Shown here piece after piece: positions 32,816 to 60,764 of a DNA stretch of 64,000 bases. A program made the translations under genes and the position numbers. A model generated the notes under the pieces. That model was not told where the DNA came from. It made no database searches and saw nothing but the letters and a program-made list of their open reading frames with translations. The DNA is from Candidatus Omnitrophota bacterium. Its GTDB lineage: Bacteria; Omnitrophota; Gorgyraeia; Gygaellales; Profunditerraquicolaceae. The DNA lies in the NCBI GenBank assembly GCA_023227985.1, contig JALOCB010000002.1, positions 10,956 through 74,955 on the forward strand, read 5' to 3'. Each line of letters begins with the position of its first letter. Position 1 is the first letter of the stretch.

Positions 32816-32949
32816 TTAAGTCAGCGGAGGCTGTGTCACAAAGCGAGTTCCGCAGGCCGAAGGGCCGTACCGGACGTTCCTATAAATCCGGGTGCAGGCC
32901 GGGAGGCCGAGGATTGTTCGAGCGACGGACACAGCCGCAGATGACTTAA
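32816..32949 (-). repeat. family B MITE-like element (inverted orientation), hisB-hisH spacer
   Basis: TIRs TTAAGTCAGCGGAGGCTGTGTC ... GACACAGCCGCAGATGACTTAA; internal sequence is the reverse complement of the 45713 and 46924 copies. Confidence 0.7.
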
Positions 32950-34833: not shown

Positions 34834-35619
34834 ATGCTGAATAAAAGGATCATCCCCTGCCTGGATATTAAAGACGGCCGGGTGGTAAAAGGGGTAAAGT
34901 TTTTAGGATTAAAAGACGCCGGAGACCCGGTCGAGGTCGCCAAGCTCTATGACCGGCAAAGAGCGGATGAGTTGGTTTTTCTGGATATAACCGCCAGTTT
35001 TGAAAAAAGAAAGACACTGGTAAAGCTGGTCCGGGAGATCGCCGGGAATATCTTTATGCCTTTTACCGTAGGCGGAGGGATAAGCGATACAACCGATATC
35101 CGCAACTTGCTTAATGCCGGGGCGGATAAGGTTTCGCTGAACACCGCGGCGGTAAAATTCCCGGAATTGATCTCCGATAGCTCTAAAAAATTCGGCAACC
35201 AGTGCATTGTGGTGGCCATTGACGCGAAGAAGACTTATAATGACCTGGGGTCAGCGGATTTCTACTGGCAGGTTTTCATCAACGGCGGAAGGACGCCTAC
35301 AGAGCTTGACGCGGTAGAGTGGGCGGCGGAGGCCGCAAGGCTGGGAGCGGGAGAGATCCTTCTGACCAGCATGGATTGCGACGGGACCAAGGATGGTTAT
35401 GACCTGGGATTGACCAAAGCCGTAGCGGAAAAAGTGAATATCCCGGTGATCGCCTCGGGCGGCGCCGGCAAGGTCGAGCATTTTTACAATGTATTAACTG
35501 AAGGAAAGGCTGACGCGGCTTTGGCCGCATCGCTTTTTCACTACGGTGAACTTTCCGTGAAACAGGTTAAAGAATACCTGGATAAAAAAGGAGTGCCTGT
35601 CCGTTATGAAGAAGACTAA
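34834..35619 (+). CDS. hisF: imidazole glycerol phosphate synthase cyclase subunit
   Basis: 261 aa; [15 protein letters not shown] start, typical HisF barrel. Confidence 0.9.
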
Positions 35620-35938
35620 GTTTAGCGTGAGATCTTTGAAGTTCGATAAGAAGGGGCTTATTCCGGCGATCATTCAGGATTATAAAAAGAACGATGTCCT
35701 GATGCTGGCGTATATGAACGCTGAATCGGTAAAAAGGACCATTAAGCTGGGAAAGACCTGTTTCTGGTCGAGGTCGCGCAAGGAATACTGGGTCAAGGGC
35801 GAGACTTCCGGCAATTTCCAGTTTGTTAAGTCGCTCGCCTATGACTGCGATATGGACGCGTTATTGATCAAGGTGCGCCAGGTAGGCGTCGCCTGCCATA
35901 CCGGGAACCGCTCGTGTTTTTACAGAAAGGCTGTTTAA
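35606..35938 (+). CDS. hisI: phosphoribosyl-AMP cyclohydrolase
   Basis: 110 aa; GLIPAIIQD...[20 protein letters not shown] motif; no fused HisE portion. Confidence 0.85.
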
Positions 35939-35939
35939 A

Positions 35940-37436
35940 TTGTATCAACCGTCTTTAAAAGAATTCCTGAAATTATCGGCTAAGTCCAATGTGATCCCGG
36001 TTTACAAAGAGATCAGCGCTGACCTGGATACCCCGGTATCGAGTTTCCTCAAACTTAAGAAGGACGATTACGCGTTCCTGCTGGAATCCGTGGAAGGGCA
36101 GGAAAAGATCGCCAGGTATTCTTTTTTGGGAAGCCGGCCCAGCCTTGTCTTCAAGTCCAAAGGCAAAGTAGTCGAGATGATCGGCCAGAACAATGAGAAA
36201 GCCTCGCGCCGGTTCATAACCGCGATTGACCCGGTAGGCGAGATGGCTCGGATCATGAAGGGCTTTGTCCCCGCTCAGGTAAAAGGCCTGCCTCGGTTTT
36301 ACGGCGGATTTGTGGGGTATATGGGCTATGATATGGTCAGGTTCTTTGAGAAGATCCCGGACAAGAACCCGGCTGATTTCGATTACCCGGATTCATTATT
36401 CATCCTTACCGACACGATCCTGGCTTTTGACCATATAAATCACACGATCAAGATCATCGCCAACTGCCTTTTGCCGAGATCCGGATCCGGGGCCAAGCTT
36501 TCCATCTCCCAAAGAAAACGCATCTACGGCCAGGCAATAAGAAAGATCGAGCGGCTGCAGAAGGATTTTGAGGCGCCTTTAACGGTTAAGCCGGAAAAAG
36601 AGCGGGAGAAACGCAAAAAGATAAAAATAACATCTAATTTTGCGAAATCGGGATTTTGTGGTATAGTTAATAAAGCCAAAGAGCACATAAGAAGAGGCGA
36701 TATCATTCAGGTAGTGCTTTCGCAGAGGTTTCAGGCTCAGATCGAGAGGGAGCCTTTTAATATTTACCGTTCTTTGAGGAGTTCCAATCCTTCGCCGTAT
36801 ATGTTCTACTTGAAACTCGGCGATATCACCTTGATCGGCTCTTCCCCGGAATTGCTGGTCCGCTGCGAGGACGGGGTCATCCAGACCCGGCCGATCGCCG
36901 GCACCCGAAAAAGAGGATCTACCGAAGCTGAGGATAAGAAGCTGGCGCGGGAGCTTTTGAACGACCCGAAGGAAAAGGCCGAGCATTTGATGCTGGTTGA
37001 CCTTGGCAGGAACGACCTGGGCAGGGTGGCGAAACTCGGGAGCGTCAAGGTCAACGAGTTCATGAAGGTGGAGAAATATTCCCACGTTATGCACCTGGTC
37101 AGCGATGTGACTGCCTTGCTGGACAAAAAATACAATAGTTTCGACGTTTTAAGGGCCTGTTTCCCGGCCGGGACCTTGAGCGGCGCTCCCAAGGTCAGGG
37201 CGATGGAGATAATCGAGGAGCTGGAAAATTCCCGCCGCGGCACGTACGCCGGATGCGTGGGGTATTTCAGCTTTTCCGGGAACCTGGATACCGGGATCAC
37301 TATCCGGACGATCTGCGTCAAGGGCAAGACCGCGTATATCCAGGCCGGAGCCGGCATAGTCGCGGATTCGGTCCCGCAGAAAGAATACACGGAGACCGTG
37401 AACAAAGCAAAAGCTTTAATGGAAGCGATCATTTAA
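35940..37436 (+). CDS. anthranilate synthase component I / aminodeoxychorismate synthase component I (TrpE/PabB family)
   Basis: 498 aa chorismate-binding enzyme (PIAGTRKRG, GAGIVADS); no adjacent amidotransferase partner, so TrpE versus PabB not resolved. Confidence 0.75.
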   Translation: MYQPSLKEFLKLSAKSNVIPVYKEISADLDTPVSSFLKLKKDDYAFLLESVEGQEKIARYSFLGSRPSLVFKSKGKVVEMIGQNNEKASRRFITAIDPVGEMARIMKGFVPAQVKGLPRFYGGFVGYMGYDMVRFFEKIPDKNPADFDYPDSLFILTDTILAFDHINHTIKIIANCLLPRSGSGAKLSISQRKRIYGQAIRKIERLQKDFEAPLTVKPEKEREKRKKIKITSNFAKSGFCGIVNKAKEHIRRGDIIQVVLSQRFQAQIEREPFNIYRSLRSSNPSPYMFYLKLGDITLIGSSPELLVRCEDGVIQTRPIAGTRKRGSTEAEDKKLARELLNDPKEKAEHLMLVDLGRNDLGRVAKLGSVKVNEFMKVEKYSHVMHLVSDVTALLDKKYNSFDVLRACFPAGTLSGAPKVRAMEIIEELENSRRGTYAGCVGYFSFSGNLDTGITIRTICVKGKTAYIQAGAGIVADSVPQKEYTETVNKAKALMEAII

Positions 37437-37455
37437 TAACAAAAAAGGAGAGAAA

Positions 37456-37713
37456 ATGGCAGTACGCATACGTATGAGAAGGATCGGGAAAAATCCGATA
37501 AAGAAGCCGCATTTCCGTATTTCAGTTTTTGACGAGCGCACGACCCGCGACGGCAGGTTTATCGAAGAGCTGGGTTTTTACAACCCGGTATCCAAAGCCG
37601 TCAAAGTCGATGAGGCCCGTATCGCTTACTGGGTAAGCAAAGGCGCGAAGCTAACGCCCAGCGTTGTCAACGCCATCAAAAGGTCAAAGTTAACCGCAAA
37701 GAAGGAGGGATAA
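37456..37713 (+). CDS. rpsP: 30S ribosomal protein S16
   Basis: 85 aa; MAVRIRMRRIGKNPIKKPHFRI. Confidence 0.9.
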   Translation: MAVRIRMRRIGKNPIKKPHFRISVFDERTTRDGRFIEELGFYNPVSKAVKVDEARIAYWVSKGAKLTPSVVNAIKRSKLTAKKEG

Positions 37714-37714
37714 G

Positions 37715-38020
37715 ATGCCCCCGCAAACAGCTCAGTCAGGTTCATTGATCAGCGGCATTCTGCCTTTCGTTTTGGTGATCGGCATCTTTTATTTTATGGT
37801 GATCCGGCCGCAGAAAGCGGAGCAGAAGAAACATCAGCAGATGCTTGAAGCTTTGGGAAAGAACGACGAGGTTGTCACTTCCGGCGGCGTCCACGGCACC
37901 GTGGTCGCAGTCAAGGATAAAGTGGTCACCCTTCGGGTCGATGAGAACGTGAAGATCGATGTGGAAAAGAACTGCGTGGCGCGCGTGGTCAAGAAACAAA
38001 GCGCCAATCAGGGGAATTAA
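37715..38020 (+). CDS. yajC: preprotein translocase subunit YajC
   Basis: 101 aa; single TM then VIRPQ...GDEVVTSGG motif; upstream of secDF. Confidence 0.8.
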   Translation: MPPQTAQSGSLISGILPFVLVIGIFYFMVIRPQKAEQKKHQQMLEALGKNDEVVTSGGVHGTVVAVKDKVVTLRVDENVKIDVEKNCVARVVKKQSANQGN

Positions 38021-38021
38021 G

Positions 38022-40226
38022 ATGGATAGAAGACTTTTGACAAAGATAGCGGTTATCCTGGGTATTGTGGGCCTCTGCGCGTATTACTCTTTTCCTTTGG
38101 AGAAAAGGATCAATCTGGGGTTGGACTTGCAGGGGGGTATGCATCTTTTGCTCAAGGTCGATACCTCAAAGCTTTCCGGCAAGGCTAAGGATGACGCCGG
38201 AGACAGGGCGATCGAGGTCATCCGCAACAGGGTCGACCAGTTCGGCGTGCGCGAGCCTACGATCCAGAAACAGGGCGAAGACGAGATAGTTGTCCAGCTC
38301 CCCGGGATAACTGACCGCGACCGGGCGATCGAGCTTATCGGACAGACCGCGCTTCTGGAATTCAAACTGGTCAGCGCTGAAGCGGATAAATTAGGCGAGG
38401 CGTTGGCGGGCAAAGTCCCGGAAGGCTATGAGTTGAAATACACGGTTGATGACAATGACCCGTTGTTGGTCGAGCAGAACGCCGTGCTTGCCGGAGACTC
38501 GCTTACCGACGCAATGGTCCAGTTCAGCTCCGGCGCTTTCAATGAGCCGGCGGTCAGCCTCAAATTCAACGCCGAAGGCGCGAAGAAATTCGCCGAGATC
38601 ACCGCAGCCAATGTCGGAAGGAGGCTGGCGATCGTATTGGACGGCAAGGTCCAGTCGGCCCCGAACATCCGCGAGCCCATCCCTTCGGGAGAGGCGCAGA
38701 TCACCGGCCGGTTCACTATGGACGAGGCGCAGGACCTGGCGATCATCTTAAGGGTAGGCGCTTTGCCCGCCCCGATGTATGTGGAAGAGGAACGGACTGT
38801 CGGGCCTTTGCTCGGACAGGATTCCATAAACAGCGGGATCAAGGCCAGCCTTATCGGGATACTGCTGGTATTCGCGGCAATGGCTGTTTATTACCTTTTA
38901 GCCGGTGTCGTTTCGGTTTTTGCGCTGGTGTTCAATCTTTTGATAACTGTAGGGACATTAGGCCTGCTTCCTTTATTATTTCCGGATTTTTCCGCGACCT
39001 TGACTTTGCCGGGTATCGCCGGTATCGTTTTATCATTAGGTATGGCGGTTGACGCCAACGTCCTGATCAATGAAAGGATCAGGGAAGAGCTGGCCGCGGG
39101 AAAAGGTTTGAAGGCGGCTTTAGCCAACGGTTATGACAAGGCCTTCAGCGCCATATTTGATTCCAACCTGACTACCTTGATCGCGGCGTTCTTGCTCTTT
39201 CAGTTCGGTACAGGTCCGATCCGCGGTTTCGCGGTCACTTTGACCATAGGCCTTATGGCCAGTATGTTTACCGCTATAGTGGTTACCCGGACCATATTCG
39301 AAGTCTTGCTGCATTTCAAGCTGATAAAATCCCTGCCTATGCTCAATTTGATCAGGCCGACCAAAGTGGATTTTATAGGCCATCGCCGGATATTCTACGT
39401 GATCTCCGCGGTAGTGATAATCGCAGGTTTGTTCGTTTTCTTCAAGAACGGCAAAAAGTCTTTCGGCATAGATTTTGCCGGCGGACAGGTCCAGGAATTC
39501 AGCTTTAAGAATCCGGTGCACGCTGATAGGGTGCGCGAGGCGCTTAAAGACCTGGATATGGCCGACGCTTCCATCCAGCAGTTCAGGGATAAGCCTAATG
39601 TCATTCTTATCCGCACTGCCCAGGATAAAAGCAAGGAGATGGTGGCGAGGCTGAAATCGGTTTTTCCCGCTGAGGATGTCCAGGTGCTCAAGATCGAAAG
39701 GGTAGGCCCGGTTGCCGGGAAGCATTTAAAAGGCAAGGCCGTGAATGCTTTGATTTGGTCATTGATTGGCATACTGATCTATGTGGGATTCCGGTTTAAA
39801 CATGTTAATTTCGCTATTGCCGGCATCATCGCGCTTTTCCATGACGTGCTGGTGGCGTTCGGGTTCCTGGCGATGACCGGAAGGCAGATCGACCTTTTAT
39901 CGGTCACGGCTTTCCTGACCATTATCGGTTTTTCGATCAACGATACTATCGTTATATATGACCGGGTCAGGGAGAACAGCCGTTTGTACCGCAAGTTAAG
40001 CCTGCGTGAGCTGATCAATCTGAGCGTGAATCAGACGCTTTCCAGAACGATCCTTACTTCCGGCATAACCTTATTGGTGGTATTGGCGATATTCTTCTAT
40101 GGCGGCGAGGTGCTCAGCAATTTCGCGTTCACCTTGATCGTAGGGTTTGTCTCCGGTGTTTACTCCACTATATTCATCGCATCTCCGTTGGTGCTTGCCT
40201 GGAGTAAGAGAGGAAACGCCAAGTAA
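38022..40226 (+). CDS. secDF: protein translocase subunit SecDF (fused)
   Basis: SecD periplasmic domain and TM bundle followed by SecF (FGIDFAGG) domain in one frame; start at ATG 38022 (MDRRLL) rather than the ORF-track start inside yajC. Confidence 0.85.
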   Translation: MDRRLLTKIAVILGIVGLCAYYSFPLEKRINLGLDLQGGMHLLLKVDTSKLSGKAKDDAGDRAIEVIRNRVDQFGVREPTIQKQGEDEIVVQLPGITDRDRAIELIGQTALLEFKLVSAEADKLGEALAGKVPEGYELKYTVDDNDPLLVEQNAVLAGDSLTDAMVQFSSGAFNEPAVSLKFNAEGAKKFAEITAANVGRRLAIVLDGKVQSAPNIREPIPSGEAQITGRFTMDEAQDLAIILRVGALPAPMYVEEERTVGPLLGQDSINSGIKASLIGILLVFAAMAVYYLLAGVVSVFALVFNLLITVGTLGLLPLLFPDFSATLTLPGIAGIVLSLGMAVDANVLINERIREELAAGKGLKAALANGYDKAFSAIFDSNLTTLIAAFLLFQFGTGPIRGFAVTLTIGLMASMFTAIVVTRTIFEVLLHFKLIKSLPMLNLIRPTKVDFIGHRRIFYVISAVVIIAGLFVFFKNGKKSFGIDFAGGQVQEFSFKNPVHADRVREALKDLDMADASIQQFRDKPNVILIRTAQDKSKEMVARLKSVFPAEDVQVLKIERVGPVAGKHLKGKAVNALIWSLIGILIYVGFRFKHVNFAIAGIIALFHDVLVAFGFLAMTGRQIDLLSVTAFLTIIGFSINDTIVIYDRVRENSRLYRKLSLRELINLSVNQTLSRTILTSGITLLVVLAIFFYGGEVLSNFAFTLIVGFVSGVYSTIFIASPLVLAWSKRGNAK

Positions 40227-40248
40227 AAAGTTTTTGATATCGATGTAT

Positions 40249-40296
40249 CCGCCGCCCACTGGAGCTTTAACGCGAAAGTGGGCGGTTGTATTTTAT
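40249..40296 (+). terminator. putative intrinsic terminator after secDF
   Basis: CCGCCCACT-N16-AGTGGGCGG followed by TTGTATTTTATT. Confidence 0.5.
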
Positions 40297-40302
40297 TCAT
40301 TT

Positions 40303-40356
40303 CAAGACCCGGTCTTGTAAGTAATTAGCCGGCAACAAGTTGCGAGATCGGGTCTT
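40303..40356 (+). repeat. family D element CAAGACCCGGTCTTG-N26-GAGATCGGGTCTT, 12 nt upstream of mfd start
   Basis: Seen directly; reverse-complement copy at 60700-60752. Confidence 0.6.
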
Positions 40357-40368
40357 AAGAGGATAAAA

Positions 40369-42261
40369 ATGTTTAAATCGCTGAAGATATATACCGGACA
40401 AACGGTCAGCATTGAATACCTGGCTGAGAGTTTTGTCCGCTTTGGTTACCATCGCCAGTCAGCGGTGGCCGACGAAGGCGATTTCAGCGTGCGCGGCGGG
40501 ATAATCGATATATTCCCGGTTACCTTTGAACTGCCGGTCAGAATAGACCTGGACGCGGAGAAGATCGTTTCCATAAAAAGTTTTGACCCGCTTAAAGGCA
40601 CCAGCCTCTGGGAACACACCATAGCCATAATCATCCCTTTCAAAAAAGCCAAAAGCGTTACCCAGCCTTCTTTTAACGAGAAATTCCCCCTGGAGAATTT
40701 CGTCGATATTAATATCGGCGATTACGTGGTGCACAACCAGTACGGTATCGGCAGGTTCAAGGGCCTGCAGAAGATAAAAACCGGGGAAAAGGCCCAGGAT
40801 AACTTAGTCATTGAATACGACGCCGGAGAAAAGCTGTTTGTGCCGGTGGACCAGATGCACCTGGTTCAGAAATACATCTCTTTCCATATAAGAAGGCCGA
40901 AACTCTTCCGGCTGGGATCAAAGGAATGGGAACGGATCAAAAACCGGGCCAGGAAGGGCATTGAGAAGCTGGCCTGGGACCTTTTGTCCCTTCAAGCAAT
41001 GCGGCTCTCTGCGGATGGGTTCGCGTTTTCCGCAGACACTGAACTGCATAAAGAATTCGCCGAAACTTTTCCTTACACCGAAACAGTTGACCAGGTAAAA
41101 GCGCTTATGGATGTGACGGCTGATATGGAAAAGGCTAAGACTATGGACCGCCTGCTTTGCGGGGACGTGGGCTACGGCAAGACCGAGGTGGCCATGCGCG
41201 CAGGATTCAAGGCTGTGGTGAATAATAAGCAGGTGGCTTATCTTGTCCCGACCACTATCCTGGCTGAACAGCATTTTCAGAATTTCTCCAAGAGGCTGGA
41301 GAACTTTCCGGTGATCGTGGAGATGCTTTCCCGTTTCCGCACGCCCGGTCAGCAGGCGGATATCATTAAAAGGGTCAGGGATGGCAAAGTGGATATAGTT
41401 ATCGGCACTCACCGGTTATTGTCGGATGACGTTATTTTCAAGGATCTGGGCCTGGTGATAATCGATGAGGAGCAGCGTTTCGGGGTTAAGGCCAAGGAAA
41501 AGCTCAAGGCCTTGAGGCTGACTACCGATGTGCTGACGCTGACCGCGACCCCCATACCCAGGACTTTGTATATGAGCCTGATGGGCGCCAAAGACCTGTC
41601 GGTCATCGATTCTCCGCCGGAAAATAGATTGCCTATCAAGACTGTCGTGGTAGAATATGATGAAGACCTGCTTCGGCAGGCGATTTTGCGGGAGTTGAAC
41701 CGCAAAGGCCAGGTTTTTTTCCTGCATAACCGCATAGAGGACCTGGAGCGTGTTCAGGAAAAGATCAGCCGCTTATTGCCTAAAGGCGCAAGATTGGCTA
41801 TAGGCCACGGTCAGATGCCTGCCAGGGAACTGGAACAGGTGATGTCCGCCTTCATAAAAGGCGATATCGATATCCTGTTATCGACTATGATCATTGAGTC
41901 CGGCATAGACATACCGAACGCCAATACGATCATAGTCAATAACGCCAATACCTTCGGTCTTTCCGACCTGCACCAATTAAGGGGCAGGGTAGGCAGGTTC
42001 AACCGTTCGGCTTACGCTTATTTCGTGGTCCCCCGGTCGGGGATTTTATCAGCCATATCCCAAAAAAGGCTTTCCGCGTTGCAGGAATATAGCCACCTTG
42101 GCGCGGGGTTCAAGATCGCTATGGAAGACCTTGAGATCCGCGGCGCAGGCAACCTCTTAGGCGTCCAACAGCACGGCTTCGTCAACGCGGTGGGTTTTGA
42201 CCTTTACTGCCGGCTCTTGAAAGAAGCTATAAATACGCTTCAAAAAATACCGAAAGGATGA
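40369..42261 (+). CDS. mfd: Mfd-like transcription-repair coupling factor, compact form (RNAP-interaction domain + SF2 translocase; lacks N-terminal UvrB-like D1a/D2 and C-terminal D7)
   Basis: 630 aa; RGGIIDIFP motif, RID-like DYVVHNQYGIGRFKGL, Walker A GDVGYGKTEV, DEEQ box, QLRGRVGR; only 142 nt intergenic upstream so no room for the missing ~400 aa. Confidence 0.75.
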   Translation: MFKSLKIYTGQTVSIEYLAESFVRFGYHRQSAVADEGDFSVRGGIIDIFPVTFELPVRIDLDAEKIVSIKSFDPLKGTSLWEHTIAIIIPFKKAKSVTQPSFNEKFPLENFVDINIGDYVVHNQYGIGRFKGLQKIKTGEKAQDNLVIEYDAGEKLFVPVDQMHLVQKYISFHIRRPKLFRLGSKEWERIKNRARKGIEKLAWDLLSLQAMRLSADGFAFSADTELHKEFAETFPYTETVDQVKALMDVTADMEKAKTMDRLLCGDVGYGKTEVAMRAGFKAVVNNKQVAYLVPTTILAEQHFQNFSKRLENFPVIVEMLSRFRTPGQQADIIKRVRDGKVDIVIGTHRLLSDDVIFKDLGLVIIDEEQRFGVKAKEKLKALRLTTDVLTLTATPIPRTLYMSLMGAKDLSVIDSPPENRLPIKTVVVEYDEDLLRQAILRELNRKGQVFFLHNRIEDLERVQEKISRLLPKGARLAIGHGQMPARELEQVMSAFIKGDIDILLSTMIIESGIDIPNANTIIVNNANTFGLSDLHQLRGRVGRFNRSAYAYFVVPRSGILSAISQKRLSALQEYSHLGAGFKIAMEDLEIRGAGNLLGVQQHGFVNAVGFDLYCRLLKEAINTLQKIPKG

Positions 42262-43178
42262 TTATGTCAGCCAGAGATTTATTCTTGAAGTCAGCATTAA
42301 CGGTGATAAGTTTATCGGTTCTGATATCTCCAGCCGCGGCGCAGGATAAAATAGTGGCTGTGGTCGGTAATGAGGTCATTACCCAGACCGACCTGGATAA
42401 TTTTGTAAATTTTACCCGCATACAAATGGCGGATAAGTTGAGCGGCAGCCAGCTTGAAGAAAAAATAACCGGTATGAAGGCGGGCCTTTTACAGCGGCTT
42501 ATCGAGGATAAGCTTATTTTGCAGGAGGCTAAAAAGAACGGCGTCAGGGCCGATGAATCCCGGGTAAACTCCCGGATAACCGAGATAAAGCGGCGTTATC
42601 CGTCCGAGAAGCATTTTCGCAGCGCGTTAGCTGAAGACGGCATGGTCGAGGCCAACCTGGTCACTAAGATAAGGGACCAGATGCTGATGTATAACATCAT
42701 CGACAGCAAGGTCAGGTCAAAAATCGTGGTAAATCCTGTTGAGATCACGGATTTCTACAACCGGAATATGTCTTTGTTCAAGACCAGGGAAGAGCGCAAA
42801 TTTCAGTCTTTACTTTTTGAAAGCCAGGATCTGGCTAAGAGCGTATATAAGCAGTTGAAAGACGGCCTGGATATTAATGAGGCGGCGAAAAAATACTCGC
42901 TTACCTTGAGCGACCTTGATGCCCGCAAGACGGAATTGAGGAAAGAGATCGAGGATGTCTTGTTCAATCTCCAGGTCGGCGAGATATCCCAGCCTGTGGC
43001 AAACCTGGGCAAGTTCTATCTGCTTAAACTTAGTGCTATAATCCCGCCGCGTCAGCAGACCTTAGCCGAGGTCAGGGAGCAGATAAATAACAGCTTGCTC
43101 GAGCGGAAGATGCAGGAGGCTTTGGTTAAATGGGTGGATGGGCTTAAGAAAACCGCGTATATAAAGATAATGCCGTAA
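42258..43178 (+). CDS. surA: SurA-like periplasmic chaperone / peptidyl-prolyl isomerase (PpiC type)
   Basis: 306 aa with signal peptide, SurA N-terminal chaperone region and one parvulin domain; surA-pdxA-ksgA order. Confidence 0.7.
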   Translation: MIMSARDLFLKSALTVISLSVLISPAAAQDKIVAVVGNEVITQTDLDNFVNFTRIQMADKLSGSQLEEKITGMKAGLLQRLIEDKLILQEAKKNGVRADESRVNSRITEIKRRYPSEKHFRSALAEDGMVEANLVTKIRDQMLMYNIIDSKVRSKIVVNPVEITDFYNRNMSLFKTREERKFQSLLFESQDLAKSVYKQLKDGLDINEAAKKYSLTLSDLDARKTELRKEIEDVLFNLQVGEISQPVANLGKFYLLKLSAIIPPRQQTLAEVREQINNSLLERKMQEALVKWVDGLKKTAYIKIMP

Positions 43179-43189
43179 GGATAACGAAT

Positions 43190-44140
43190 ATGGCTTTAAG
43201 ATCATCGAGAATAAGTATCGGCATTACCATAGGGGATCCGGCTGGCATCGGGCCTGAGGTAGTTGCCAAGGCCTTGGGGTATCGCTATAACGCGAAGATA
43301 ACCGTTATAGGCGATAAACGGGTTTTTGATAAATATGGCCGCAAGGCTAAAGGATTTGAGTTCATTGACCTGAATAATGTAAAGCGCGGCGGTTTTAAAC
43401 CCGGACAGGTTAAACCTGCTTATGGCCGGGCATCAATGGAATATCTGGACCTGGCTATGGATCTGTTGAAGTTCGGCTCAATTCACAGCCTGGTCACCGC
43501 TCCGATATCCAAAGAGGCGATAAACCTGGCGGGTTATCATTATTCCGGGCACACCGAATATCTGGAAAAGCAAAGCCGTGTTCCTCATTCGGTAATGATG
43601 CTTTTGAATGATAAATTCCGTTTCAGCCTGGTCACCCGGCATATACCTCTAAAAGATGCGGCATCCCGGATCAGCGCTAAGTCAATAGAAGAGACTATTG
43701 CCATAACTTATAATTCCCTGAAGAATATCTTTGGCGTATCGTATCCCAGGATCGTGGTCTGCGGTATCAATCCGCATGCCTCGGATAACGGCTTGATCGG
43801 TGATGAAGAGAACCGGATCATTATTCCCTGCCTTAAGCGTTTAAGCAAAAAGATCAAGGGAATAGCCGGGCCTCTGCCCGCTGATATTGCCATAGCCAGG
43901 GCTGCCAAAGGCAAATTTGACGCGGTTATCGCTATGTTCCACGACCAGGCGCTTATCCCTTTGAAACTGACCGGTGATCAAAGCGGGGTGAATATAACCC
44001 TGGGGCTTAATTTCATCCGGACTTCGCCTCTACACGGCACTGCCTTTGATATCGCCGGCAAAGGCAAGGCTGATCCGGGCTCAATGATCTCTGCCATAAA
44101 ACTCGCCTTAGAATGCACAGCAAACCAAAAAAAAGCTTAG
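43190..44140 (+). CDS. pdxA: 4-hydroxythreonine-4-phosphate dehydrogenase
   Basis: 316 aa; IGITIGDPAGIGPE start and GHTEYL, metal-binding His motifs. Confidence 0.85.
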   Translation: MALRSSRISIGITIGDPAGIGPEVVAKALGYRYNAKITVIGDKRVFDKYGRKAKGFEFIDLNNVKRGGFKPGQVKPAYGRASMEYLDLAMDLLKFGSIHSLVTAPISKEAINLAGYHYSGHTEYLEKQSRVPHSVMMLLNDKFRFSLVTRHIPLKDAASRISAKSIEETIAITYNSLKNIFGVSYPRIVVCGINPHASDNGLIGDEENRIIIPCLKRLSKKIKGIAGPLPADIAIARAAKGKFDAVIAMFHDQALIPLKLTGDQSGVNITLGLNFIRTSPLHGTAFDIAGKGKADPGSMISAIKLALECTANQKKA

Positions 44141-44898
44141 GACAGAACTTTCTGGTTGACCGGAATATCCAGCGCAAGCTGGTGGAATTCTGCGATTTCA
44201 GCCGATCTGATAGTGTATTAGAGATCGGCTCAGGCCAGGGCGCAATGACCGGCTTGATCGCCGACAAGGTAAAGAAATTATTCGCCCTGGAGATCGACAG
44301 CTCGCTTATCCCGATCCTCAAAGAGTCTTTGGCCGGCCGCGACAATGCCGAGGTGATCCATCATGATATACTTAAATTCGATATTAAACAGCTTGGCGAG
44401 AAAAAGATCAAAGTCTTTGGCAACATTCCTTATTACATTACTTCGCCGATAATCGAGCGCCTCTTGAATTATAAGGAAATGATCTCGGAGATATTCCTGA
44501 CTGTGCAGAAAGAATTCGGCCAGAGGATCGCTGCCAGCCCGGGGTCAAAGGAATACGGGTCTTTCAGCTGTTTTACCCAGTATTATCTTGAGCCGAAGAT
44601 ACTGTTTACGGTCAAGAAAAACAGCTTTCACCCGGTCCCCAAAGTGGATTCCTGTTTTTTGCGGCTTTTGGTCAGGAAAACCCCGGCGGTAGATGTTCGG
44701 GATGAACAGCTGTTGTTCAAGATCATCCGTACTTCATTCCAGCAAAGAAGGAAGACCCTGCGCAACAGCCTGGCGGATGTTGTTTCTAAGGAAAAACTGG
44801 AAGAATTCTTCGCGAAATATAAAATTAACCCCAAGATCAGGCCGGAAGAGCTTAGTTTGCAGCAATTTGCGTATCTAGTAAATCAGGAACGCTTCTGA
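44113..44898 (+). CDS. rsmA: 16S rRNA (adenine1518/1519-N6)-dimethyltransferase
   Basis: 261 aa; KKSLGQNFL start, SAM motif LEIGSGQG, NIPY motif. Confidence 0.85.
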   Translation: MHSKPKKSLGQNFLVDRNIQRKLVEFCDFSRSDSVLEIGSGQGAMTGLIADKVKKLFALEIDSSLIPILKESLAGRDNAEVIHHDILKFDIKQLGEKKIKVFGNIPYYITSPIIERLLNYKEMISEIFLTVQKEFGQRIAASPGSKEYGSFSCFTQYYLEPKILFTVKKNSFHPVPKVDSCFLRLLVRKTPAVDVRDEQLLFKIIRTSFQQRRKTLRNSLADVVSKEKLEEFFAKYKINPKIRPEELSLQQFAYLVNQERF

Positions 44899-44969
44899 AC
44901 TCAAAGCGGAAACTGGGCGGGGATTAAAGGGAGAAGTGTATTGAACTCAACCGGAGAAGTGTATTACCT

Positions 44970-45344
44970 ATGATAAAATTCCTTTATTTGATCGTTGGCG
45001 GCGCAGTAGGCACGGTGGCGCGTTATTTTTTATCCGGTCTTGTTTACCGGATCGCCGGCGCGGCTTTCCCTTATGGCACATTAGTAGTTAACCTGGTTGG
45101 ATGTTTTATAATCGGTTTTCTGGTCTCGATCTCCGATAATAAGTTCATGCTGGGCACCAACGCTAAATTATTACTGATGATCGGTTTCTGCGGCGCGTTC
45201 ACCACGTTTTCGGCATTGATCATGGAAACTAACGGTTTGATCAAAGACGGGGAAAGCCTCAGGGCTTTTATGAACGTGTTGGTCAGCGTGGTATTCGGTT
45301 TTATCGTATTCCGGCTGGGTGTTCTATTAGGCGAAGCTATATAA
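44970..45344 (+). CDS. crcB: fluoride ion channel CrcB/Fluc
   Basis: 124 aa four-TM protein with GxxGxxxTFSxF-like signature (GFCGAFTTFSALI). Confidence 0.8.
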   Translation: MIKFLYLIVGGAVGTVARYFLSGLVYRIAGAAFPYGTLVVNLVGCFIIGFLVSISDNKFMLGTNAKLLLMIGFCGAFTTFSALIMETNGLIKDGESLRAFMNVLVSVVFGFIVFRLGVLLGEAI

Positions 45345-45363
45345 ATTAAAATAGGGAGGCGTT

Positions 45364-45693
45364 ATGAAACTTCCGGCTGAAGGAAAATTACTTAGGATAT
45401 TCATCGGTGAAGCGGATAAATGGCAGGGCAAGCCTCTTTATGAGGAGATAATCTTTCTGGCGAAGCAAAATGGAATGGCAGGAGCGACCGCTATTAAAGG
45501 CTTTATGGGGTTCGGCTGCAAAAGCCATATGCATACAGCCAAGATAATGCGGCTTTCCGAGGACCTGCCCATAATAATAGAGATCGTGGACAGTGAAGAG
45601 AAGATCTCCGCGTTTATTCCCAGTTTGGATGAAATGGTTAAGGAAGGCTTGATCACCCTGGAAAAAGCTAACGTGATAATGTACCGCGCTTGA
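45364..45693 (+). CDS. DUF190 (PII-like) protein, CrcB-associated
   Basis: 109 aa; LRIFIGEADKWQGKPLYEEI... typical DUF190, frequently adjacent to crcB. Confidence 0.7.
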   Translation: MKLPAEGKLLRIFIGEADKWQGKPLYEEIIFLAKQNGMAGATAIKGFMGFGCKSHMHTAKIMRLSEDLPIIIEIVDSEEKISAFIPSLDEMVKEGLITLEKANVIMYRA

Positions 45694-45712
45694 TTTTACG
45701 TTAATCGAGGCG

Positions 45713-45885
45713 TTAAGTCAGTGAGGACTGTGTCAGTCGCTCGAACAGTCCTCGACCTTCCGGCCTGCACCCGGGCGTATGGCACCTCGCCATATAGGAG
45801 TGGCGAGTATGTCGCTTTCTGCGTCAGAACGTCCGGTGTGGCCCTGTGGCCAACGAAACTCGCTTTGTGACACAGCCCGCACTGC
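45713..45885 (+). repeat. family B MITE-like element (long copy, ~173 bp) with a nested family A-like insert, followed by a T-run; DUF190-SPFH spacer
   Basis: TTAAGTCAGTGAGGACTGTGTCA...TGACACAGCCCGCACTG; internal CACCCGGGCGTATGGCACCTCGCCATATAGGAGTGGCGA resembles family A units. Confidence 0.7.
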
Positions 45886-46016
45886 TTTTTTCGGTCAAAT
45901 ATACTCGCCTTCCACAAAATCAGAATATTTTTAGGGCGCTAATGTGTTTGCAATCCATGGTTCTGTGGTACAATATCATTCAAGGTTGGTTTTATTAAAA
46001 TAACAGGAGGAGAAAA

Positions 46017-46820
46017 ATGGAACAGCGGGATACAATTAATTTTGCGATAAATTGGTTGATCAAAACCGGGGTCTTTGTCGTGGCTTTAGTAATCTTCTTT
46101 GGAAGTTTTTATGTAATAGGCGTCGGCCAGGTAGGCGTAATATTTAATCAGGCTACGGGGCAGACTAAATCGGTTCAATCGGGGTTCAACTTGAAAATGC
46201 CGGTCATTGAACAGCTCAGTGTATTTGATATCAGAACGCAGCGGATCGATATAGTGGAAGATTGCGCTTCCAAAGATCTGCAGCTGGTTAGGATGAAAAC
46301 CGTAATAAACTACCATCTTGATTATACCAAAGTAAATGAAATATTCACAAAAGTAGGCAGGGATTATACGGATAAGATCATCATCCCTATAACCAATGAG
46401 ATCGCCAAGTCTTTAGTATCTCAATACACTGTGGAGAATATTATTGTAAAGCGCGCGGAATTGAAAGATGCTATTGAAGTGGCCTTGCGTGTAAAATTAG
46501 GCGAGTATTTTATCGTAATCGAGAGTGTTAATTTAGTGAATGTGGATTTCACCCCGGAATTCAACCGGATAGTTGAGGCGAAACAGATCGAAGAGCAGAA
46601 GATCAAAACAGCTGAGTATAAGAAGATGCAGGCCGCTCAAAACAAAGAAGCGGTTATTTTAGAAGCCGAGGGGGAATCCAAACGGCAGGAATTGATCAAG
46701 GCAACGGTTAATCCGCAGATCGTTTCTTTGGAATGGATCAAAAAATGGGATGGCAAGCTCCCGGTCACTATGTTAGGGGATAAAACAGTAATGATGGTTA
46801 ATCAGGATGAAAACAAATAA
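46017..46820 (+). CDS. SPFH/band 7 (prohibitin-like) membrane protein
   Basis: 267 aa; N-terminal TM, SPFH core (GQVGVIFN...), C-terminal coiled-coil; own promoter-like site and AGGAGG SD. Confidence 0.75.
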   Translation: MEQRDTINFAINWLIKTGVFVVALVIFFGSFYVIGVGQVGVIFNQATGQTKSVQSGFNLKMPVIEQLSVFDIRTQRIDIVEDCASKDLQLVRMKTVINYHLDYTKVNEIFTKVGRDYTDKIIIPITNEIAKSLVSQYTVENIIVKRAELKDAIEVALRVKLGEYFIVIESVNLVNVDFTPEFNRIVEAKQIEEQKIKTAEYKKMQAAQNKEAVILEAEGESKRQELIKATVNPQIVSLEWIKKWDGKLPVTMLGDKTVMMVNQDENK

Positions 46821-46843
46821 AGCTTTTTAAGCAGATCCCAAAA

Positions 46844-46874
46844 GGGCTGGACTTGATCGTCCAGCCCTTTTTTA
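46844..46874 (+). terminator. rho-independent terminator after the SPFH gene
   Basis: GGGCTGGAC-ttgatc-GTCCAGCCC followed by TTTTTTATT. Confidence 0.75.
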
Positions 46875-46923
46875 TTACTGATTTTGCGGGTCCTGGCCTG
46901 CCGGCAGGCAGGCTGTCGAGCCG

Positions 46924-47008
46924 TTAAGTTAGTGAGGCCTGTGTCAGTCGCTCGGACAGTCCTCGGCCTTTGGCCTGCGGAACTCGCTTTGTGACACAGC
47001 CCTCACAT
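46924..47008 (+). repeat. family B MITE-like element (short ~85 bp copy), just upstream of the HicAB islet
   Basis: TTAAGTTAGTGAGGCCTGTGTCAGTCGCTCGGACAGTCCTCGGCC...GGAACTCGCTTTGTGACACAGCCCTCAC; matches the ends and core of the 45713 copy, lacks its middle segment. Confidence 0.7.
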
Positions 47009-47135
47009 GTATTTGCCGAAAATCTCCTGATTGTGCGCTCCAGCAAACCCGCAAGGCTAATCTTGTTATCTTGATTTTTTTGTGTTTCACTAAACAGGAT
47101 GAAAACAAAAATTTTACTTGACAGTGATACCGGAT

Positions 47136-47190
47136 ATGGTACCATAAATTTCGATATGGACTTGAAAAATGGTTCCAGATATGGTATCAT
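47136..47190 (+). promoter_or_regulatory. candidate HicB operator: palindromes ATGGTACCAT (47136-47145) and ATGGTATCAT (47181-47190) within GATATGGTAYCAT direct repeats in the hicA promoter region
   Basis: Perfect 10-bp palindrome plus a near-copy about 45 bp apart, downstream of TTGACA 47118 and 16 nt upstream of hicA ATG. Confidence 0.5.
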
Positions 47191-47205
47191 TGTGATGGAG
47201 AGAAG

Positions 47206-47466
47206 ATGCCGGATATCTTCAAAATTTATGAAAAGGCTTGTGCTTCTTCGAATAATCTTTCTTTTCTAGAGTTATGTAACTTAGTAGAAGGAGCGGGTTT
47301 CGTTTTTGATAGGCAGAAAGGTACATCGCATAAGATTTACAAGCATCCATTAATACGGGATAGGATAGATGCAATGGTTAATATACAAGATGTACATGGC
47401 AAAGCTAAAAGCTGGCAAGTGAAAGTAGTCTTAGATTTGATCGAAAAATACGGCTTAATAAAATAA
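47206..47466 (+). CDS. hicA: HicA-like toxin (type II TA mRNA interferase), N-terminally extended
   Basis: 86 aa; DRQKGTSHKIYKHP matches HicA GSHxxxxHP core; AT-rich; first gene of the pair as in hicAB. Confidence 0.55.
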   Translation: MPDIFKIYEKACASSNNLSFLELCNLVEGAGFVFDRQKGTSHKIYKHPLIRDRIDAMVNIQDVHGKAKSWQVKVVLDLIEKYGLIK

Positions 47467-47493
47467 TAAAGAATAAAAAAGGGGGCGGGCGCC

Positions 47494-48006
47494 ATGGGGA
47501 AATATTCAATTAATATTGTTTGGAGTGATGAGGATGCTGGATTCATTGCTACTATCCCTGAATTTAAGAATTTGTCAGCTTTTGGAAATACTTATGAAGA
47601 GGCTCTGAAAGAAGCTGAAACTGTTCTAGAAGGCTATATTGAATCTCTGAAAGCCGAGAATGTACCCTTACCAGAACCACACAAGATATCAGAATATAGT
47701 GGACAAACTCGTTTAAGAATGCCACGTGATTTACATCAGGCAATAGCGTTAGGAGCGCAAAGACAAGGGGTGTCCCAAAATACTTATATGGTAATGCTTC
47801 TTTCAATGAATTATACGATTAATTCCATGTTGCCAATAATTGAACACGCAGGAGAACATATATTTATAACTCGTGTAAGTTCCCGGGGCGTTGATAATGA
47901 CAAAACATATTATAACCCGCTAGTAGCTCATCGGAATAATTTAGTAACAAATGATAATACAATTGAAGTCAAAGGGTTGAATAATATTGTGAGAGGTGAT
48001 TTATGA
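47494..48006 (+). CDS. hicB: HicB-like antitoxin (HicB N-terminal RNase-H-fold domain + RHH-like DNA-binding segment, C-terminal extension)
   Basis: 170 aa; KYSINIVWSDEDAGFIATIPEFKNLSAFGNTYEEALKEAETVLEGYIESL matches UPF0150/HicB; RLRMPRDLHQAIALGAQRQG RHH-like. Confidence 0.6.
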   Translation: MGKYSINIVWSDEDAGFIATIPEFKNLSAFGNTYEEALKEAETVLEGYIESLKAENVPLPEPHKISEYSGQTRLRMPRDLHQAIALGAQRQGVSQNTYMVMLLSMNYTINSMLPIIEHAGEHIFITRVSSRGVDNDKTYYNPLVAHRNNLVTNDNTIEVKGLNNIVRGDL

Positions 48007-48398
48007 TTAAAAATATTTGGACGGTGTTAGCATCTAATATTATAACTGATAAAGAAACAAATATGGTAAGTTATGTTAATTGTATTGAAATAGTTATAAC
48101 TAAAGGTTTACCAGCGAAAATGCCAACTATTGGTATTGGCACTCTTTGGGAAAAAGAAACTGATCAAGATAATTCCTTAATGGTTAAAATAACATTAATT
48201 TCGCCCTCGGGGAAAATCAAAGATGTTTTTAAAACCGACAGTATACCTTTACCAGTTCGCCGACATCGGTTAAACATAATTGCTGGTAATTTGGTAGCTG
48301 AAGAAGAAGGTGAATATAAGATTCGAGTCGAGGTTATGGGTTTGGATAAATGGATTATTGCGAATGAAGTTCCATTTGTTGTTACGGTAAGAAAATAA
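48003..48398 (+). CDS. hypothetical protein, translationally coupled to hicB (no recognisable domain)
   Basis: 131 aa ORF overlapping hicB stop by ATGA; AT-rich codon usage like hicAB; no motif recognised. Confidence 0.4.
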   Translation: MIKNIWTVLASNIITDKETNMVSYVNCIEIVITKGLPAKMPTIGIGTLWEKETDQDNSLMVKITLISPSGKIKDVFKTDSIPLPVRRHRLNIIAGNLVAEEEGEYKIRVEVMGLDKWIIANEVPFVVTVRK

Positions 48399-48722
48399 AA
48401 GACAATAAGTAGAGTAATTAAATAATTAGCTAATTTGGAATGCCAATAAAAGAATTTGGCGGGAGTGCGAGCGAATGGAGATTTTAGCCAAAGCAGCTTG
48501 AGTATTTTGGGTATCCCGGCGGAGCGTAGCGACAACACCGGGACAGCGAGGATGTTAAGGAGCATTTGTTAGAATAAATGCGACGAGTTCCGCAACTGCC
48601 AAAATGCGAAAGACCTTTGGCGGCTCGATAGGGTAAAATCGACTTTGAGCGAACAACCCGGCAAATTCATTAAAATACCTTCCTATATCCGCTATCCGCA
48701 AAGCCGCAAGACCAGAAAATCT

Positions 48723-48778: not shown

Positions 48779-49962
48779 ATGGCAAAATTGACTGTAAAAG
48801 ACCTGGATTTGAAGAACAAAACTGTATTAATGAGAGCGGATTTTAATGTTCCGCTGGACGCTAACCTCAACATTACTGACGATACCCGCATCCGCGAAAC
48901 TTTACCCACGATCAAGTTTATCCTTGAAAAAGGCGCAAAAAAGCTCGTTCTGATGAGCCATTTAGGCAGGCCGGACGGCAAAAGAGTGGATAAATACAGC
49001 TTGAAACCGGTAGCAGCCAAGCTGGAAGAATTACTCAAAGAAAAAGTAAATTTCCTGAATGATTGCGTTGGCCCGGAAGTCAAGGCCGGAGTGATCAATT
49101 CTAAGGAAAGGATTGTCCTTTTAGAGAACCTTAGATATCACGCAGAAGAAGAGGGCAATAACGCGGATTTCAGCCAGCAGTTAGCCGCATTAGGCGAAGT
49201 TTTCGTTAATGACGCCTTTGGCACAGCGCACCGCGCTCACGCTTCCACAGCCGGAGTGACAGATTCCTTAAATCCGCCGCTGGTTTCCTGCTGGAAAAAG
49301 AGATCAAATATTTAGGCGACGCGGTAAGCAATCCCCAGAAGCCTTTTATGGTCATCCTGGGCGGGGCTAAAGTTTCCGATAAGATCGGGGTTATTGAGAA
49401 TTTACTGCCAAAATGCGAGGCTATTATCATCGGCGGCGGCATGGCTTATACCTTCCTGAAAGCCCAGGGCAAGGCTATCGGTAATTCCAAATTAGAGAAA
49501 GACAAGCTGGACCTGGCTAAATCCATCCTGGATAAAGCCGGCTCTTTGAAGAAAGAGATCGTTCTGCCGGTGGATCATGTGGTAGTTGAGACTGTGGACG
49601 CCAACGCCAAGTTCGAGATCACCTTGACAGACGCGATCCCTGATGGAAAGATCGCAGTGGATATCGGCCCGAAAACCATAGAATTGTTCAATTCCAAATT
49701 AAGCACGGCAAAAACCATTGTCTGGAATGGCCCGCTGGGTATCTTTGAGATGGACGCGTTCAGCAAAGGCACCTCTGAAGTAGGCAAATGCCTGGCAGGG
49801 CTTAAGGCAGTCACTATTATTGGCGGCGGTGATACCGCGGCCGCAGTGGCTAAATTCAAATTACAGGATAAGATGACCCATATTTCCACGGGCGGCGGAG
49901 CAAGCCTGGAATTCTTAGAGGGCAAGAATCTTCCCGGGATCGAGGCATTAACTGATAAATAA
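48779..49962 (+). pseudogene. pgk: phosphoglycerate kinase, interrupted by an apparent single-nucleotide deletion (frameshift near 49262-49267); could be a sequencing artefact
   Basis: ORF 48779-49315 ends ...[23 protein letters not shown]. The -1 frame reads [42 protein letters not shown] and continues into ORF 49348-49962. Canonical Pgk needs GVTD-FLKS, i.e. gatTtcc where the sequence has gattcc. Confidence 0.8.
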
Positions 49963-59841: not shown

Positions 59842-60696
59842 ATGGAAGAAGCGATAAAGAAAGCTGAAGTTCTTATAGAAGCCCTGCCGTATATCAGGCA
59901 GTTCAAGGATAAGATCATCGTGATCAAATACGGCGGCAGTATCCTGGGCGAGGAGAAGATCAGGGAAGGCGTGCTCGAGGATATAGTTTTCCTGAATTTC
60001 ATGGGGCTTAAGCCTGTTCTGGTCCACGGCGGCGGGCCGAACATCAGCGGCAGGATGCGGGCTACCGGCAAGAAGACGGACTTTGTGGACGGGATGCGCG
60101 TGACCGACGAAGAGACGCTGATGCTGGTCGAGGAAGAGCTGAAGAAATTGAACGACCTGATTGTTGGCGAGATCAAAGATCTGGGCGCGAAGGCGGTGGG
60201 TTTGAACGGCAGGGACAAGAATCTTATCCAGACTGAAAAGAAGAAGGCCAAGATCGACTTGGGCCTGGTAGGCCATATCGTGGGAGTGAACAGCAAGGCG
60301 ATAAACGACGAATTACAGCATAACCATGTCCCGGTGATCATACCGATGGGCATAGGCCAGGATAAAAAGACTTACAACGTGAACGCGGATGAGGCGGCGG
60401 CGAGCATAGCCGCCGAGCTTAAAGCGGAAAAGCTGGTTCTTCTGACCAACGTCAAAGGGATCATGCGCGACGCCGAAGACCCGCATTCATTTATCTCCAC
60501 GCTGACCGGCGAGTCAGCCAAGGCGTTGATCGAGCAGAAAGTCATACAGACAGGGATGATCCCGAAAGTAATGGCTTGTATGGATTCGTTGAGCAGAGGG
60601 GTAAAGAAAACACATATGGTTGATGCCTGTATTCCACACGCGCTGCTTCTGGAGATATTCACCGATAAAGGCATCGGCACTGAAATCGTTTTATAG
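59842..60696 (+). CDS. argB: acetylglutamate kinase
   Basis: 284 aa; KYGGS, VHGGGP motifs. Confidence 0.9.
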   Translation: MEEAIKKAEVLIEALPYIRQFKDKIIVIKYGGSILGEEKIREGVLEDIVFLNFMGLKPVLVHGGGPNISGRMRATGKKTDFVDGMRVTDEETLMLVEEELKKLNDLIVGEIKDLGAKAVGLNGRDKNLIQTEKKKAKIDLGLVGHIVGVNSKAINDELQHNHVPVIIPMGIGQDKKTYNVNADEAAASIAAELKAEKLVLLTNVKGIMRDAEDPHSFISTLTGESAKALIEQKVIQTGMIPKVMACMDSLSRGVKKTHMVDACIPHALLLEIFTDKGIGTEIVL

Positions 60697-60699
60697 ATC

Positions 60700-60752
60700 G
60701 AGACCCGATCTCCTAAATCGTTGGGGGATGAAGCGTTAGAAGACCGGGTCTT
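60700..60752 (-). repeat. family D element (reverse-complement orientation), argB-argD spacer, 12 nt upstream of argD start
   Basis: GAGACCCGATCTC-N27-AAGACCGGGTCTT equals the reverse complement of the mfd-upstream element. Confidence 0.6.
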
Positions 60753-60764
60753 GAGAAAGATGGG

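Follow-up and report, generated by a model that had tools for sequence, protein, structure and literature searches.

A probably mobile palindromic repeat family of Candidatus Omnitrophota with an invariant internal loop and covarying stems

Introduction

The closest described counterparts of the element studied here are small palindromic repeats of bacteria. ERIC sequences are imperfect palindromes that lie in transcribed intergenic spacers in either orientation, occur at low to moderate, lineage-dependent copy number and can affect mRNA fate (PMC10969869). Transcripts of Correia elements (CREE) form RNase III substrates, and the pneumococcal BOX, RUP and SPRITE sequences are small repeats that cluster and insert into one another (PMC10969869). 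The subject of this work is family B, a hairpin-forming repeat with three copies (B1, B2 and B3) in 64,000 nucleotides of Candidatus Omnitrophota DNA (assembly GCA_023227985.1, contig JALOCB010000002.1, forward-strand positions 10,956 to 74,955). This whole stretch is called the window, and its own numbering is used throughout; loci fetched from other contigs carry L numbers. Family B, which is undescribed, adds one more member, unusually built, to a known class of selfish DNA and does not amount to a new biological system. It is probably a non-autonomous, repeatedly inserted mobile palindrome resembling MITEs (transposable elements of the miniature inverted-repeat type), ERIC and REP sequences. 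No repeat-element family and no REP or MITE report for Omnitrophota was found in the literature searched. The three copies and the core of B1 are as follows.

45713-45885, plus strand: B1, long form, 173 bp; it starts 19 nt past the DUF190 stop codon and stands at the left boundary of a variable islet
46924-47008, plus strand: B2, the short form (85 bp, with its core at 46939-46999), which separates the SPFH module from the HicAB module (85.5 bits, E = 2e-17)
32816-32949, minus strand: B3, intermediate form, 134 bp, core 32831-32934, antisense in the hisB-hisH spacer
45728-45875, plus strand: core of B1, with the 5' strand of stem P1 CTGTGTCA at 45728-45735 and the 5' loop GTCGCTCGAACA at 45736-45747
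45857-45875, plus strand: 3' side of the B1 core, with the 3' loop AACTCGCTTTG at 45857-45867 and the 3' strand of P1 TGACACAG at 45868-45875

Family B resembles ERIC as an imperfect palindrome of the class of about 100-130 bp that is intergenic, found in either orientation, conserved across genera and represented by internal size variants; ERIC size variants arise by internal insertions. The two share no sequence similarity (blastn of B1 against 5,426 complete genomes of E. coli, a species with ERIC copies, gave nothing) and come from different phyla, and in B the termini vary between clades and an internal asymmetric loop is invariant. A TA duplication has been reported for ERIC; for B it is an uncertain candidate, with TA flanking several window-clade copies. 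Like the Correia elements of Neisseria, family B is a short palindrome bounded by terminal inverted repeats, with an internal segment setting its long forms apart from its short ones, and TA stands next to several of its window-clade copies; Correia elements, however, are high-copy (>120), species-restricted and equipped with promoters and an IHF site. The pneumococcal BOX, RUP and SPRITE repeats parallel the nesting of two further hairpin families, A and C, inside B, but their sequences and phylum are unrelated, and nesting in B is concentric, at or near the apex, and recurs at different positions by lineage.

REP and REPIN sequences share with family B the form of GC-rich extragenic hairpins whose stem pairing is maintained, and recognition of the folded strand is plausible for B as well. 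In contrast to them, the B consensus lacks a GTAG-type 5' tetranucleotide and the family is not present in hundreds of copies (an exact 19-mer occurs twice on a 1.87-Mb contig). A RAYT-like Y1_Tnp gene with an HIHLIL motif was noted inside a polyketide-type cluster (L075 3845-4507). It was rejected as a mobiliser of B, being flanked by its own inverted REP-like hairpins (CCTATTCCACC-CCCGC-GGTGGAATAGG), which are unrelated to B, and no homologue of its product was found by tblastn in the window or the other fetched loci. Integron attC sites likewise form imperfect hairpins with a variable apex, conserve stem pairing over sequence and lie near small accessory or toxin-antitoxin genes. Unlike attC, family B has loop bases that are invariant in sequence and lacks the RYYYAAC...GTTRRRY order, and core operons hold most of its copies. 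Neither an intI gene nor a cassette array was seen, though the window ORFs (open reading frames) were not scanned exhaustively.

Results

Repeat copies in the window

A preliminary description of this DNA had placed three copies of a MITE-like palindrome with inverted termini at B1, B2 and B3, and both the copies and their character were borne out by repeat search, shuffling and alignment. In a repeat search of the window B1 and B2 came up as a direct pair, with 91% identity over 55 nt and 88% over 40 nt, and B3 as their inverted partner (62 nt at 84%, 58 nt at 83% and 35 nt at 97%). The conserved halves CTGTGTCAGTCGCTCGAACAGTCCTCG and GGAACTCGCTTTGTGACACAGCC each gave three matches in the window with at most three mismatches, 0.00 being expected from 100 shuffles. 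A fourth copy was not found in the 64 kb with a covariance model run with filters off. The copies are 85-173 bp long and non-coding, the overlapping ORFs being only spurious antisense frames, and in the alignment all differences in length are internal. All three fold as long hairpins that are stabler than shuffled controls on either strand (z -2.7 to -4.4).

Terminal inverted repeats are present, with a complete pair TTAAGTCA...TGACTTAA in B3 and degenerate right ends in B1 and B2; the ends typical of the window clade are TTARRTYAGTGMGG...CCKCACTRAYYTAA. The inverted repeat of B1, of B2 and of a B remnant in L072 runs ATCGAG further out, and B1 and B2 have 8 nt more in common upstream (TCGAGSCG, from 45705 and 46916). 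Of the defined element ends proposed earlier, the inverted termini thus stand, and TTAA as the exact terminus is uncertain because these three copies reach further. The flanking genes, which had been labelled correctly, encode CrcB, DUF190, SPFH/Band_7, HicA, HicB, HisB (IGPD) and HisH (GATase).

Core architecture and covariation

All copies share one layout: an outer arm, GGCTGTGTCA, GTCGCTCRRACA, an apical stem-loop, AACTCGCTTTG, TGACACAGCC and the complement of the outer arm. The core of about 60 nt is common to all of them, and its 10-bp stem GGCTGTGTCA/TGACACAGCC is almost invariant. Between this stem and the apex lies an internal loop of two non-complementary strands (GTCGCTCRRACA on the 5' and AACTCGCTTTG on the 3' side), which is invariant in every copy except at the R positions; both strands hold TCGCT in direct orientation. 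The 5' half of the family reads CTGTGTCAGTCGCTCG and the 3' half CTCGCTTTGTGACACAG.

The apical stem occurs in at least six unrelated versions, each internally paired and usually closed by a tetraloop: TCCTCGGCC/GGCCTGCGGA, GCGCAGCCC/GGGCTGCGC, ATGAAGCCC/GGGCTTCAT, TGCAAAGCC/GGCTTTGCA, AATGCGCC/GGCGCAC and, in L009, a family-C hairpin. The outer arms are wholly different between clades, yet they are paired within each copy, for up to about 20 further bp. In an alignment of 17 sequences 84% of cells were paired, compared with 70% in shuffles, and double changes were found in 22 of the 31 stem pairs; none of 500 shuffles reached either value. Pairing fell to 35-46% when the 3' partner was slid by 1-3 columns, and the same helices were recovered independently by RNAalifold. 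In L017 one clean double compensation (GGTA/TACC) is found even within the near-invariant stem. At the orthologous junction between the genes for a TPP (thiamine pyrophosphate) enzyme and a glyoxalase, the copy in L001/L015 differs from that in L005 by two compensatory double substitutions in the outer stem and by the apical type.

Distribution of family B

Similarity is not limited to the loci of the window: a wider search gave about 25 further copies on Omnitrophota genome and metagenome contigs, strictly intergenic and in either orientation. The exact 20-mer ACTCGCTTTGTGACACAGCC matched a single GTDB representative, a metagenome-assembled genome of Candidatus Omnitrophota, and a 19-mer search returned 16 metagenome loci, of which 15 are real elements; L012, with the 3' motif only, was rejected as a chance match. 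The covariance model, built from 17 short forms, recovered 23 forward-strand copies at 64-107 bits, plus B1 as a split match.

No relative of family B was found among PLSDB plasmids, in the 5,426 complete E. coli genomes or in GenBank phages. A phage origin was rejected, since the covariance model showed every one of 36 pattern matches in IMG/VR viral contigs to be due to chance. Rfam 15 gave no match at gathering score in the 64 kb, and E-value thresholds yielded no known family either, with only generic long-hairpin (microRNA-precursor) matches far below threshold. At 13712-14154 of L004 the B core and a spacer form a 107-bp unit that is repeated in tandem 4.1 times (93% matches); after it come a truncated 5' half and a promoter close to consensus (TTGACA-17-TATACT).

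Gain and loss at orthologous junctions

Insertion polymorphism was found at four junctions among syntenic relatives, two of which hold no B copy in the window:

10405-10408: empty site of the leuC-leuD type, where the genes for the aconitase-family large and small subunits overlap
44899-44969: ksgA-crcB spacer without B

Relatives with the same recA-htrA-recX-alaS-hisDBHAFI gene order were searched for empty sites. The hisB-hisH spacer measures 178 nt in the window, 134 of which are B3, as against 4 nt in L081, 18 nt in L069 and 32 nt in L070, and L066-L068 carry a different palindrome of about 120 nt (family C) at the same point. On this comparison B3 is a lineage-specific insertion into the his operon. 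The reverse arrangement is seen at leuC-leuD: in L014, which is syntenic at 68% nucleotide identity, the two genes lie 107 nt apart and the spacer holds a B copy. The ksgA-crcB spacer is without B in L072 as in the window, and a full short B lies there in L077/L079 (L077 225-315), whose DUF190 is 97% identical. Downstream of DUF190 the window has the full B1, and L072 and L077 have a solo 3' half of B. By parsimony, presence and absence at orthologous junctions indicate insertions, and this is the core evidence for mobility. The filled and empty spacers are too diverged (hisB-hisH, leuC-leuD) or replaced (ksgA-crcB) to be aligned across the junction.

The B1/B2 islet downstream of DUF190

Over 35462-45694, and then from 48716 onward, blastn aligns the window collinearly with L072, the nucleotide identity being about 86-88%; the L072 lineage includes the 1.87-Mb contig Ga0209340_1000001, which bears the copies L007 and L008. 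The segment between is organised as follows.

45695-48715: variable AT-rich islet, 3,021 bp, with B1, SPFH, B2, HicA, HicB and ORF131; synteny break at 45694/45695
45998-46872, plus strand: SPFH module, with the gene at 46017-46820 and its own terminator at 46840-46871

The G+C content of the islet is 30-43%, compared with 47-50% in the flanks, and the integration hotspot suspected in the preliminary description is confirmed as a variable site by the break and the resumption of synteny. At this position L072 has 671 bp that hold ORF157 and then the solo 3' half of B, and L077 shows a third arrangement (ORF157, B remnant, DGC, AAA protein). Judged from synteny, a hypervariable slot has its left boundary precisely at B1, and B2 stands between two acquired modules. 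ORF157 (L072 10332-10875; L077 1053-1600), for which Pfam gave no match, is flanked by a string resembling a residual 5' arm, GTAGGTGAGGGG, and by the solo 3' half, and looks as if it had replaced the 5' half of an ancestral B copy at the DUF190 site. Homology of the window to the SPFH loci of relatives covers only 45998-46872. SPFH orthologues at 83-88% identity stand in three other gene contexts with no B copy, so B is not linked to SPFH as cargo.

Excision or inversion of the SPFH gene through B1 and B2, as had been proposed, is not upheld. Direct repeats cannot invert, and the longest identical runs of 16 and 22 nt make the pair a poor substrate for homologous recombination; such lengths are at or below those usually needed for efficient RecA recombination. 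No SPFH deletion junction was seen in the same-species contigs L018-L021, which have either the same arrangement or a break inside B1, where contig L018 ends. A Campbell-type hybrid origin of B1 and B2 is questionable: the arms of B1 are mismatched (GTGAGGA and CCCGCAC), but one simple crossover would not give this pattern.

Pairs of B copies at most 1.3 kb apart were found in four loci, the window included. Of the other pairs, the two direct ones enclose an ORF6N gene in L017 and an 86-aa ORF in L013, the inverted one in L016 encloses a 152-aa ORF with an Smr gene, and in three of the four paired loci the G+C content of the bracketed segment is 6-10 points below that of the flanks. With a background of a few copies per Mb, chance falls far short of explaining such clustering.

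Two further features of this region were noted. A 94-nt segment of L007 (11171-11264), 60 nt from its B copy and containing a family-A-like CCGGTGTTGTCGC on the reverse strand, matches 48448-48539 of the window at 88% identity in reverse orientation. The pgk frame of the window breaks at about 49280-49350 after ...HASTAGV and continues in a different frame, leaving ORFs at 48779-49315 and 49348-49962; PGK of L072 is intact (394 aa), and the break would be either an assembly frameshift or a pseudogene.

Orientation and possible effect on transcripts

With respect to co-directional flanking genes, about five loci carry B in sense and six in antisense orientation, and mismatches in the stems are G-U in 23 and A-C in 19 cases, with no asymmetry. 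The housekeeping genes that neighbour B copies are not related to one another: his, leu-type aconitase subunits, TPP enzyme/glyoxalase, tmk/cysS, guaA/dnaE, rpoN, a TonB receptor and a hydrogenase. Together these findings speak against a cis-regulatory RNA and against any role restricted to a single RNA strand, and point to recognition of the DNA or to a hairpin that would act whichever way it lies. The proposal that B1 doubles as the terminator of crcB-DUF190 bears on the following feature.

45886-45891, plus strand: run of six T (T6) that follows the closing stem of B1 without a gap and may serve crcB-DUF190 as an intrinsic-terminator tail

The long hairpin and the TTTTTT, 19 nt past the DUF190 stop codon, are present as described, and the termination function is plausible by inference. 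A simple terminator scan does not flag B1, its loop being too large; in L008 the same arrangement of stem and T-run stands at the end of a convergent gene.

In the spacer before crcB (44899-44969) Rfam revealed no fluoride riboswitch, even at a permissive E-value. This spacer, common to the window and L072, holds a repeated string GAAGTGTATT. A self-cleaving ribozyme was rejected: A|GUC is present in B, but the opposite strand and the helices do not fit hairpin, hammerhead, twister or pistol ribozymes (compared by eye). CRP-like or sigma-54-like sites in the core were likewise rejected, by eye only, on spacing and bases.

Nesting and other hairpin families

The preliminary description had ascribed the differences in size between the copies to nested family-A material, and the alignment of the B1 apex with long A units and a short A hairpin in B3 confirm it.

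45767-45841, plus strand: nested long family-A unit in the B1 apex (GCACCC-stem, two inner hairpins joined by GTAT, stem-GGTGTGG)
32865-32895, minus strand: nested short A-type hairpin in the B3 apex (GCACCCGG-ATTTATAGGAACGT-CCGGTACGG)

The B1 apex aligns over its full length with the long A units at 19581-19655 and 24757-24832, in the common layout of CACCC-stem, two inner hairpins joined by GT(A/G)T and stem-GGTGT. The short A-type hairpin is found also in the apex of L008 and L016 and, in L002, 3' of the apical stem (P2). A modules thus occupy different positions of B in different lineages, which indicates independent nesting events.

Family A itself consists of hairpins of the form ACACC-C-stem-loop-stem-GGTGT with GGA in the loop, at 15665-15790, 19578-19652, 24757-24980 and 26125-26295 of the window. 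The units lie in sense orientation in 5' untranslated regions, between promoter and ribosome-binding site, and often in tandem. They gave no Rfam match; the arrays with GGA in the loop presumably resemble CsrA-type binding leaders. Four tandem A units stand upstream of pgk in L072 (about 11040-11245) and none in the window, so that family A is polymorphic as well. Family C is an AT-rich palindrome of about 120 nt, GGGGTCAGAATTATTTATT...AATAAATAATTCTGACCCC, in the hisB-hisH spacer of L066, L067 and L068 (10607-10745); in L069, a near-identical relative of this lineage, the spacer is empty. A family-C hairpin is nested in the B apex of L009 (515-585).

A further hairpin repeat pair, TCAAGACCCGGTCT...AGATCGGGTCT, occurs at 40302-40355 (SecDF-Mfd spacer) and 60701-60754 (spacer 60696-60765); the two are 54 nt long and 76% complementary, and the SecDF-Mfd hairpin is kept at the same junction in L072 (4899-4961, a weak model match). 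Upstream of SMC, within a gap of 542 nt, a small excisionase- or helix-turn-helix-like ORF MFANDLMTIEDLAAYLKVSRRTIYEWLKQNKVPALKIVGQWRFKKDKIDSWMEAQAHA occupies 19677-19853; a promoter close to consensus and a long family-A unit come before it. SMC of the L066-L068 lineage carries an intein (Intein_splicing and LAGLIDADG; 1,694 aa; loci at 1-1650), which is apparently absent from SMC of L070 (1-1640; 1,166 aa) and of the window (19905-23303; 1,132-aa ORF).

Discussion

Family B as a mobile palindrome

Prokaryotic MITE criteria were taken from PMC10969869. By these, family B is a non-coding element of less than 500 bp with terminal inverted repeats, and it occurs as dispersed copies with insertion polymorphism at the four junctions. 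A trans-acting enzyme would recognise the invariant core, probably in the form of a folded hairpin, because compensatory changes preserve the pairing of the stems and the loop bases never vary. It would insert the element into short spacers, often at most 25 nt from a stop codon. Once inserted, the element would be co-transcribed and would form a stem of about 20-30 bp, which could terminate transcription (as with the T6 tail of B1) or provide a processing or stabilising site inside operons, and the palindromes would make their host sites prone to rearrangement.

Several points weigh against a mobile element of this kind. TA stands on both sides of B3, the L077 copy and L017a (with an irregular right arm) and at the left end only of B1, B2 and L016m, so that a TA-flanked target duplication is an uncertain candidate. 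Among the motif-scanned loci no pair of 5' and 3' halves at the distance of an insertion sequence was found that could mark an autonomous element or transposase with matching ends. The apparent copy number is low, with the exact 19-mer twice in the 1.87-Mb contig and twice in a 788-kb contig. The G+C content of the elements is 50-66% vs 42-52% for their loci and about 47-50% for the genome, which is not that of AT-rich MITEs. The pattern of conservation, with clade-variable termini and an invariant interior loop, is the reverse of that of ordinary transposon ends, and the retained, compensated copy at the TPP enzyme-glyoxalase junction would be the pattern of a selected structured element.

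Alternative explanations

These last points lead to an alternative that we consider unlikely, namely that B is a functional structured motif, as RNA or folded single-stranded DNA, whose loop binds a host protein (a processing, stability or nucleoid factor) and which is kept and not selfish. About 20 loop nucleotides that stay invariant across lineages in which the stems have been replaced several times, the strong covariation and the low apparent copy number are consistent with such a role, as is the element kept with compensatory changes at an orthologous junction (L001 vs L005); the nested A units, moreover, are themselves sense hairpins of 5' untranslated regions with GGA in the loop. A host function is, however, difficult to reconcile with an orientation that is random relative to transcription, with equal numbers of G-U and A-C mismatches, and with the ready absence of the element at the same junction in close relatives; there is no common gene neighbourhood and no Rfam relative.

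Decidedly less probable is that families A, B and C form one hairpin-in-hairpin mobile system in which pairs of B cores bound exchangeable cassettes (SPFH, HicAB, ORF6N, Smr). Its enzyme would recognise the unpaired loop of a folded strand and insert modules into the apex or flank of other hairpins. If this were true, the system would be a cassette platform that resembles an integron without an integrase.

About as improbable is that B copies are structure-specific recombination sites of the attC or att type, through which some recombinase exchanges the same small cassettes. Such sites would account for the four loci in which a B pair, direct in three cases, encloses one or two small accessory genes of low G+C content, for B1 exactly at the synteny break with B2 between the SPFH and HicAB modules, for ORF157 of L072/L077 between a residual 5' arm and a B 3' half, and for a hairpin shape kept by compensatory change, as in attC. 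Yet the ends read GTTAAGT...ACTTAAC, the reverse of the R''/R' order of attC, most copies are single insertions inside core operons, and SPFH orthologues stand elsewhere without B. The members of the L017 pair each have self-complementary arms of their own type and are therefore not recombination hybrids. No integrase or recombinase gene was seen in the stretches of the window that match housekeeping relatives, ORFs outside these not having been scanned. A local duplication or chance palindrome confined to the B1/B2 locus, as the 1.2 kb between the two and their 8 common upstream bases might suggest, is refuted by the zero chance matches expected from shuffles, by B3 at 13 kb in opposite orientation and by more than 20 further copies with the same core on unrelated contigs.

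Implications

As a probably mobile palindrome, family B offers a concrete marker for strain-level genome change in a large uncultivated phylum, and it appears to break assemblies. Where it has inserted into core operons (his, leu), a stem of 20-30 bp likely alters expression. Its reversed build, with an invariant unpaired loop, covarying stems and swappable termini, points to a partner that recognises structure, and its link to the junctions of acquired genes may provide a handle on the uptake of accessory genes by the small genomes of Omnitrophota.

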